From: Schmidtea nova
Lineage: Eukaryota
Assembly: GCA_044892505.1 (NCBI GenBank)
Contig: CM097884.1
Location: 125,302,001 to 125,366,000, forward strand
Length of the DNA: 64,000 bases
Direction: 5' to 3'
Below the pieces are notes generated by a model that had not been told where the DNA came from, did no database searches, and worked only from the letters and a program-made list of their open reading frames with translations. Made by a program: the position numbers and the translations under genes. This document shows positions 50,401-51,083 of this stretch, in pieces (position 1 is the stretch's first letter; each line of letters starts with the position of its first letter).

Positions 50401-51083
50401 TGCACTTGGAGATGTCGTACCATCTGGACACAGAGAGTTTCATCAGTGCATTCAAAAGGTTTATTGCGCGTCGAGGAACTCCCATGCTAGTCTTATCTGA
50501 TAACGGGACGAATTTTGTAGGAGCTGCGAGCGAAATTGAGAACGTGGAGATTGATACGTACTCAATCCAAAAGGGGCTCAGAAAGGACAAGATAAAATGG
50601 ATTTTCAACCCTCCCAGTGCTCCCCACTTCGGAGGGGTGTTCGAGATATTAGTTAAAGAAGCGAAAAAGGCTTTATTAGCTATTACTGGAGTGGCTGAGT
50701 TAACTGATGAAGAGCTGCAAACCGTTATTGCTGAGGCGGAAGATATGGTTAATAGTAGACCGCTGACGGCTATGAGCGAGGATCCGGAAGAAGAAGAAAT
50801 ATTGACGCCAAATCACTTCGTCAAGCCCGGTTATAAAAGATTCAACGAGGGAGAGATAGAATTTACGGGAATGGGCATAAAAAGGCGGTGGAAGATGATT
50901 CAGGATTTGAGCGAGAAGTTTTGGCGGCGATGGAGACAAGAGATTGTTCTTGGATGGAGGAATAGGAAGAAGTGGGCGAAGGAAGGAAAAGATTTATCAG
51001 TTATCAAAAGCGTTATCAGCACGAATGTCGTGGGTTCGAGCCCCATCTTGGCCACCACCAGAAATGTTTGTGATAAAACGTAA
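47469..51083 (+). CDS. BEL/Pao pol: partial protease, RT, RNase H, integrase (C-terminus replaced)
   Basis: [20 protein letters not shown] (RT), [12 protein letters not shown] (RNase H), [25 protein letters not shown] (IN); homology stops at KEGKDL, about 50996. Confidence 0.95.
51010..51060 (+). tRNA. Retro-copied 3' part of tRNA-Ile in the PBS position of LTR arm 2 (not a functional tRNA gene)
   Basis: Variable loop ATGTC, T arm GTGGG-TTCGAGC-CCCAT, acceptor strand CTTGGCC, discriminator A, CCA CCA; 51010-51024 is the reverse complement of an Ile anticodon arm TCGTG-CTGATAA-CGC. Confidence 0.8.

Follow-up and report, generated by a model that had tools for sequence, protein, structure and literature searches.

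The tRNA-Ile sequence at 51022-51057 of the window (the window is the whole stretch of 64,000 nucleotides that was analysed) forms the middle joint of a rearranged BEL/Pao retrotransposon, with pol on one side and an inverted second LTR on the other. Its template was a mature, edited tRNA-Ile. We consider it fairly probable that a normal, co-packaged tRNA-Ile was copied when reverse transcriptase switched to it from an unprocessed U5 end and that fold-back and end joining completed the product. The host is an animal with an AT-rich genome of 1.25 Gb. All of the letters that an earlier note on this DNA had described were found at their positions. The element is built up as follows (N followed by a number designates a tRNA position; sister means another copy of the same family):

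46173..46624, + strand: arm 1, the visible 5' LTR of the BEL/Pao element; it matches the sister LTRs and its start runs into N
46339-46379: inverted 41-nt pol piece replacing the middle of the arm 1 LTR; 100% identical to 49077-49117
46625..46646, + strand: spacer TTTC (4 nt) and 18-nt initiator tRNA-Met primer-binding site (Met site 46629-46646)
46981..47475, + strand: ubiquitin fragment and gag remnant, flanked by two deletions of about 1 kb each in comparison with sister L026
47400..50996, + strand: BEL/Pao pol frame, cut in the integrase tail; 99.7% identical to sister L026
50994..51009, + strand: stutter of two short anticodon-loop complements and AAA; its first TTA is common to pol
51010..51024, + strand: flipped anticodon arm, the complement of tRNA-Ile N41 to N27; the C at 51017 records inosine-34
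51022..51057, + strand: tRNA-Ile N41-N76 in sense orientation; A58 (51039) is faithfully copied and the CCA is non-encoded
51058..51064, - strand: TTTC spacer (51061-51064) and TGG, the U5 end of the inverted LTR; this TGG is the 'second CCA'
51065..56955, - strand: arm 2, an inverted LTR of the same family in two parts (51065-51183 and 56116-56955); 98.4% identical to L026 over 690 nt
51184..56110, + strand: nested Gypsy element in arm 2 with two identical 238-nt LTRs

Normal copies of the family, as judged from the sisters, carry direct TG...CA LTRs, a tRNA primer site, a polypurine tract and a short target duplication (5 bp in sister L029). Their ends are trimmed to CA and a symmetric 4-nt spacer is present at the opposite end. 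The copy in the window has neither two direct LTRs nor a polypurine tract; its second LTR is inverted and its gag is deleted. This chimeric copy is dead and has no function of its own. Its pol frame includes Peptidase_A17 (E 3e-45), RVT_1, Integrase_H2C2 and positions 1-46 of the 94 of DUF5641, and it is 99.6-99.7% identical to three sisters. It stops 216-217 nt before the position of the normal 3' LTR, and the sisters continue for these 216-217 nt past the cut point, up to their polypurine tract and direct LTR. When 40 of 89 candidate pol copies were scored, all 39 copies other than the window left the window sequence at 50996. The junction goes back to a single event.

The two arms differ from each other in the number of repeat units (2 vs 4) and in their deletions. 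The inverted pol patch of arm 1 was not found in the LTRs of sisters L026 and L029, and the two deletions of about 1 kb at the gag region show overlaps of 8 and 10 nt (microhomology). Arm 2 has four units of 114 nt as well as a 5' fragment of calmodulin (56498-56597), and its match to the sisters ends at 56955, about 140 nt before the usual LTR start. Both outer ends of the chimeric element run into N. Since the arms differ and since arm 1 has a private patch and private deletions that are absent from the compared sisters, two faulty cDNAs were likely joined. This joining likely took place before or during integration. The nested Gypsy element is flanked by a 5-bp target duplication (51179-51183 and 56111-56115) and was inserted into arm 2 after the junction had formed.

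The first ATG of the Gypsy element spans the joint between LTR end and primer site (51418-51432), and at L069 there is a matching tRNA-like 3' end that is over-read by a few letters. Left of the BEL/Pao element (window 44333-45692), there are fragments that resemble a piggyBac-type transposase. Two other readings of the region, that 46174-56960 is flanked by DNA-transposon ends and that the calmodulin and ubiquitin fragments are locus-specific captures, were dropped; both fragments are normal in the sisters.

To characterize the template, we compared the junction with the tRNA genes of the host. Positions 51022-51054 are identical to N41-N73 of the host tRNA-Ile(AAT) gene, 51055-51057 constitute a CCA that is missing from this gene and 51058-51060 constitute a second CCA. 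All 17 tRNA-Ile gene copies inspected (3 loci) carry A34, continue with TATTTT and do not encode a CCA. These genes form a short tandem array with a 336-bp unit. A 30-nt probe gave 33 exact matches, which are the 30 tRNA-Ile(AAT) genes of the tandem array, the window and a duplicated pair of loci (L013/L014). The flipped piece at 51010-51024 is an exact complement of N41-N27 if N34 is read as G; with A34 the match breaks in two at this position. For the 12 flipped letters outside the shared CGA, the chance probability is about 1.6e-8 per site and about 1e-4 when 120 placements and roughly 60 starting positions in the tRNA are allowed for. The 13-nt anticodon arm with G34 has five exact matches in the genome (control: 1), namely the window, L013, L014 and two sites without tRNA context. 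A34 is deaminated in all eukaryotes (PMC10275265). Because the CCA is non-encoded and G34 is absent from the genes, the template was a mature tRNA with inosine-34, as the earlier note had proposed. A tRNA-Ile(GAT) gene or a tRNA-derived SINE with the G34 arm, which it had named as refuting this reading, was not found in the genome among the exact matches of this arm. Its predicted tRNA-Ile(AAT) gene without an encoded CCA exists, but position 5 of the acceptor stem is G and not A. ARAGORN called no tRNA gene in the window, L013 or L014, and an Rfam search of the window gave a single sub-threshold tRNA match (E 1.2).

Inverted joins are a known type of artefact, and an assembly or library chimera might be considered for that reason. 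We regard such an origin as extremely improbable, since a sequencing artefact can give neither inosine-34 as G nor a non-encoded CCA. Moreover, the nested Gypsy element has its target duplication inside arm 2. The tRNA-LTR junction was recovered at single-copy depth in short-read contigs of two sequencing runs, X1 and X2, which come from one study and perhaps from the source sample. In X1 it is covered by a 61-nt contig (51026-51086) without differences, which has less than the required 31 letters a side and a depth of 26 vs thousands for its neighbours. X2 also contains the U5-tRNA junction of L013. The anticodon-side joint (50997-51014), in contrast, is absent from the available contigs (no cover in four of four runs), which would suit a chimera but is uninformative, as the same side of L013 is also unbridged among the contigs listed. 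Folding of the junction strand revealed nothing unusual (z -0.02).

The double CCA had been interpreted as the CCACCA tail of a tRNA marked for decay. In support of such a tag, the letters CCACCA do follow A73, and the host tRNA-Ile begins with G1 G2, which is one tag requirement (PMC10275265). However, its acceptor stem is predicted to be intact, with 7 pairs including one G-U (G at position 5), and is not obviously unstable. In addition, the ends of this family carry an outer TGG anyway. The inverted match between the two arms extends to the fourth letter of the Met site, so that the outer CCA occupies the position of the element's own TGG. Two loci show that unprocessed U5 ends with three primer letters exist without tRNA-Ile. 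At L041, a 3' LTR that is preceded by pol and the polypurine tract ends with TTTC and TGG, and a 7-nt stutter and unrelated DNA follow. L045 also ends with TTTC and TGG; here the spacer TTTC is repeated and antisense internal sequence follows. L013/L014 have TG, not TGG, before an Ile copy with a single CCA, and a single CCA was also found at a third Ile locus (L091). Two letters in L013/L014 vs three in the window suggest a variable primer remnant rather than a CCACCA tail. Taken together, the second CCA is probably not derived from the tRNA and the TGG before the Ile copy is likely a remnant of the Met primer. In the window, a one-triplet slip on the natural CCA-CCA end of the tRNA (N71-76) may have given the same letters.

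The two loci without tRNA also deserve a description in their own right. L041 (also L024, 8292 onward; G000:C2:258486548) joins the unprocessed 3' LTR and its stutter to AT-rich DNA, which resembles a piece of a TATA-binding-protein-like gene. L045 (3701-7489; G000:C1:143847700-143851490) is an inverted-LTR chimera without tRNA, head to head with a complete copy.

The arm 1 primer site is the 18-nt Met site that had been recognized before; all 15 letters after its TGG match the host initiator tRNA-Met. When we counted 238 U5 ends with spacer and TGG (a count that leaves out TGGTA followed by non-G continuations and subfamilies with other U5 ends), 235 continued as Met site and three did not. 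A working Ile primer site was present in none of the 238 and an end of the window type in one. The Ile copy of the window adjoins antisense pol, not leader and gag. Together with the prevalence of the Met site, this speaks against a switch of primer.

A related possibility is that a normal tRNA-Ile annealed by mistake to the Met site and primed the minus strand, that the plus strand over-read it with a one-triplet slip and that the second strand transfer failed because of the mismatched end. The position of the tRNA copy is exactly that of a primer, two of the three Ile captures described below lie at U5 ends, and a tRNA-Ile with one CCA fits 8 of the first 11 and 10 of the 18 primer-site letters (TGG added). 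Colicelli and Goff proposed the same for tRNA-Gly in MLV (as reported in PMC12220202). Nevertheless, true mis-priming appears unlikely. One TGG would be expected, but both captures at U5 ends have extra letters, and these are of unequal length (TGG, TG). L091 captured the same tRNA far from a primer site, and alternative priming as documented in PMC6450007 involves near-identical acceptor stems and leaves an 18-nt site. For a tRNA with the CCACCA tail the fit (6 of 11) is worse than for the CCA end.

The window is not the only site at which this tRNA was caught. A search for the Ile 3' end with CCA gave nine matches, four of which are real captures and five of which are matches of 11-12 nt. 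At L013 3914-3963 and at L014 (G000:C3:106585913, 106687495), we found an Ile copy of N28-76 with G34 and one CCA. The two loci belong to a 99% identical duplication and represent two copies of one capture. Here, the tRNA lies between a U5-like stretch of 18 nt and U3-like sequence of a sister subfamily. The 18 letters are identical to the U5 end of sister L112 (p about 3e-8, corrected) and end in TG; upstream of them, L013 has no match to any of the compared family loci. L013/L014 may be a junction of the two-LTR-circle type. At L091 (also L105; G000:C3:112717580), Ile N45-N76 with A58 read as T stands in place of the 5' end of a family member and is joined to family internal sequence with one shared letter (A in nine of nine sisters). 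This element is of the non-coding type and has an inverted LTR and primer site behind the polypurine tract at its other end. The sequences of the window, L013/L014 and L091 thus count as three independent Ile captures.

As to gene number, there are about 30 exact gene matches for tRNA-Ile vs 1034 for initiator tRNA-Met and 752 for tRNA-Leu, the Ile count being one without other Ile isodecoders. Only Ile was searched with tolerance at A58, so that the preference for Ile is partly a product of the search. The initiator tRNA-Met genes with their 1034 exact matches form very long tandem arrays with a 458-bp unit, as against the short 336-bp array of tRNA-Ile (arrays at G000:C1 510.09 Mb onward and G000:C2 431.78 Mb). 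The host tRNA-Leu gene, which has an intron after N37, is present in about 750 copies in a mixed Gly/Leu/Gln array.

A broader pattern of T-loop and CCA had 80 matches (control: 50), all of which were examined. Among these 80, tRNA junctions adjoining the BEL family were those of three Ile loci alone, L091 having been added by the Ile-specific search. Another 23 fit the 3' end of host tRNA-Leu at 19 or more of 21 letters and, thus, run past A58. These tRNA-Leu 3' copies are spread over 23 loci among L048-L160 and L095. In four of them the copy is 46-48 nt long and ends at N38/N37. Some have flanks in common and may go back to a single event. The BEL family of the window was not found within 400 nt of the 23 copies, which are probably primer over-runs of Leu-primed elements. 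Finally, L107 (5502-7288; G000:C1:486688345) contains an initiator tRNA-Met copy with CCA, in which 58 gene letters extend to N15 and are followed by a stutter. This copy is the centre of an inverted repeat of about 0.9 kb (96% identical) in a related LTR. The same LTR carries pieces that we take to be an FKBP-like mRNA fragment and a stretch resembling a flatworm spliced leader.

The copies of tRNA-Ile end at N27 (window), N28 (L013) and N45 (L091, at the base of the anticodon stem). Misreading of A58 is the usual sign of m1A. The faithful A58 of the window means that this base was either unmethylated or correctly read, two cases that are indistinguishable. Read-through past A58, which the earlier note had pointed out, was confirmed, since A58 lies inside a copy that reaches N27. 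The hypomodified tRNA that had been deduced from it is not needed, because the Leu copies pass A58 as well, L091 misreads A58 and the window copy stops at N27, before G26. Dimethyl-G26 blocks reverse transcriptase on human tRNA-Ile-AAU (PMC11831618), and by analogy the stops at N27/N28 fit a block at a modified G26, the modifications of G26 and A58 in the host being assumed from other animals. A hypomodified, CCACCA-tagged tRNA-Ile that primed or replaced the primer site would account for the error-free A58, but a copy that ends at N27 is what a modified tRNA would give. Together with the points on the tail given above, we judge this scenario to be very improbable, and the earlier note was probably wrong on decay tag, hypomodification and primer switch.

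The most probable course of events starts from the two tRNA-derived pieces. One strand is the complement of N76-42 and the other that of N41-27; their overlap is confined to the three outermost base pairs of the anticodon stem (the last three letters of the flipped arm, CGA, are common to the sense copy), and together they tile N27-76 exactly once. The copy starts at A76 directly after spacer and TGG. If the Met primer was incompletely removed, 2-3 extra letters would have remained on the U5 end, which integrase would then have left untrimmed. From this end, reverse transcriptase would have jumped to tRNA-Ile at its 3' end, the pairing extending over 0-1 nt (or over CCA, with the one-triplet slip), would have passed A58 and would have stopped before the modified G26. 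The 3' end of the cDNA may then have folded back at the anticodon stem, held by the outer three pairs, and served as the primer of its second strand. A nick near N41/42 and fill-in would have opened the resulting hairpin, and synthesis-dependent end joining would have linked it to another cDNA, an unfinished one. This product would have entered the chromosome, and the Gypsy element would have been inserted into arm 2 later.

Fold-back after a tRNA copy is directly visible at L107, where the hairpin is unopened. For the window, the hairpin intermediate and the nicking enzyme at the flip are putative. With 0 to +1.0 kcal/mol as DNA, the stem of this fold-back has little stability, and it has alternatives: its three letters could also pair at N58, and 2-4 terminal pairs are available at most stop positions. 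The joint at pol consists of templated short direct repeats and a 3-nt microhomology. Its stutter pieces are the complements of N38-32 (50994-51000) and N39-33 (51000-51006), both with the inosine reading, plus AAA, and it looks like the product of synthesis-dependent end joining or of slippage by reverse transcriptase, which leave similar letters. An alternative reading of 50997-51002 as a 6-nt sense match to the D-arm was set aside; the two loop complements cover more letters.

A different order of synthesis would have both ends copy one tRNA. In this scenario the LTR end copies N76 to about N42 and pauses at the anticodon stem, whereas the broken pol end is primed in the anticodon loop (TTA on UAA), slips twice and copies a 5' fragment (N41-27), and the two meet at CGA/TCG. 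A hairpin-opening enzyme would then be unnecessary, and the exact tiling would also be expected if RNase H had cut the tRNA at the end of the paused cDNA. In addition, the three loop pieces have cDNA polarity for the pol strand and each starts with a 3-nt match to N36-38, and L091 stops at N45, the base of the same stem. On the other hand, priming on RNA would have to take place three separate times and a cut tRNA would have to be reached by a blunt jump, stutters of the same type occur without tRNA in L041 and L045, and L107 shows the fold-back after a tRNA copy. We consider copying from two ends rather unlikely. The template jumps near the anticodon loop that had been suggested before stand insofar as jumps occurred, but fold-back of a finished cDNA explains the flip better than jumps at this place do.

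The junction might also have been made in the chromosome, if opposite neighbouring copies had been broken or deleted and tRNA-Ile cDNA had been written onto the break at the primer site of the second copy. Copies of the family are clustered in AT-rich simple repeats, some neighbours have opposite orientations and arm 2 has one private change, all of which would suit such a patch; PMC12220202 argues for this order of events in HIV. Against it, four junctions (window, L013, L041, L045) come after the second or third letter of the primer site. One of them, L041, involves a 3' LTR, a place that has no spacer or TGG in a normally integrated copy. Furthermore, all four mapped long Ile/Met captures lie in DNA of the BEL family or a relative. 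A repair patch after integration is therefore quite improbable, and we return to the jump from an unprocessed cDNA end.

The family in which this took place is young and numerous (235 exact matches of U5 and primer site). Its LTRs and internal regions are mosaics with a varying number of 114-nt units and with host fragments (window 46379-46579 and 56111-56497; sisters L021-L040 and L109-L117), among them calmodulin and two different ubiquitin pieces. Further mosaic pieces resemble glutathione reductase and Hsp70. Many copies of about 6 kb have no pol. Most of the copies among sisters L031-L039 are located inside (TAA)n-type simple repeats, which suggests a target preference. General background on BEL/Pao elements is given in PMC3118150.

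The closest precedents come from retroviruses. In circular MLV DNA, reverse-transcribed tRNA-Gly separates the LTRs (Colicelli and Goff 1986, per PMC12220202); in an HIV provirus, tRNA-Gly adjoins the 3' LTR (Gurgo and Franchini 2025, PMC12220202). As in our case, a mature non-primer tRNA with non-encoded CCA is present with its 3' end at U5, accompanied by deletions and by joining without integrase, and the HIV case also has extra letters (CCAC) at the join. In contrast, the present copy belongs to a BEL/Pao element in a natural genome, includes the 3' half only and records the inosine; moreover, an arm is flipped, the partner is antisense pol and the same tRNA was caught three times. Compared with the two-LTR circle junction of MLV (U5-tRNA-U3), the copy in the window is joined to pol instead. 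In HITME of HIV-1 (Konstantinova et al. 2006, per PMC12220202), reverse transcriptase moves to a non-primer tRNA and 63-65 nt of tRNA-Asp or tRNA-Glu replace deleted sequence. L091 resembles such a jump, but HITME was triggered by an engineered hairpin, inside the genome of a colinear virus, whereas the window copy sits at a U5 end and its LTR is inverted. Over-reading of the primer past m1A58 by plus-strand strong-stop DNA (PMC8599865) similarly gives U5 DNA that extends more than 18 nt into the tRNA and bars the second strand transfer; there, however, the primer is the cognate one and the second stop is at N54, while in the window a non-primer tRNA was copied to N27. Primer-site switching of HIV/SIV (PMC6450007) also places the complement of another tRNA at the primer-site position, but it involves near-identical tRNAs, an 18-nt site and a colinear replicating genome, in contrast to the extra TGG, the 36+15 nt of tRNA and the antisense pol of the window.

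Other systems share single steps with our scheme. In the LTR-mediated capture of host RNA, which includes the Pao element BATUMI (Tan et al. 2016, PMC5131818), reverse transcriptase switches to a co-packaged RNA at short matches. Like those cases, the family of the window carries ubiquitin, calmodulin and other host fragments. Unlike here, the captures of Tan et al. are mRNA pieces in mobile elements with two direct LTRs, and the word tRNA is absent from the available text of that paper (PMC5131818). Synthesis-dependent microhomology-mediated end joining (PMC5728401) produces short templated direct repeats with 3-nt microhomology, and our stutter fits its loop-out/snap-back forms; however, it concerns chromosomal breaks and alone supplies neither RNA-derived sequence nor the flipped 12 letters. 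Dead-end DNAs of Ty1 that end in primer-site sequence can join other DNA (PMC2939329), and inverted LTRs can also arise from inversion circles formed by auto-integration, which lack tRNA (PMC7197481). HIV packages tRNA-Ile, mostly the UAU form, for reasons unknown (PMC3098512). Our literature searches brought up retroviral precedents only; neither a flipped anticodon arm nor the repeated capture of a non-primer tRNA by a BEL/Pao family turned up in them. As the subscription literature was thinly covered, this is weak evidence of absence.

What is new here is that a single family caught the same low-copy, non-primer tRNA three times independently; precedents are known from retroviruses. Three captures of a tRNA with about 30 exact gene matches point to selective packaging. 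We tentatively put forward, as a possibility that is far from certain, that the family selectively packages the scarce tRNA-Ile(IAU), that this tRNA is the preferred landing pad of reverse transcriptase at stalled or untrimmable ends, and that the stop at G26 together with the anticodon stem yields a self-priming hairpin. The occurrence of CCACCA at an LTR junction calls for caution against reading it as a decay tag. The locus is a record of reverse transcription and repair chemistry: it records unprocessed BEL/Pao cDNA ends with the 4-nt spacer and 2-3 primer letters, jumps of reverse transcriptase onto non-primer tRNA ends in vivo, and the positions at which it stopped. If selective packaging were true, the family would have a repeatable route to inverted-LTR elements and would leave genomic records of tRNA modifications (I34, A58, G26, G37).
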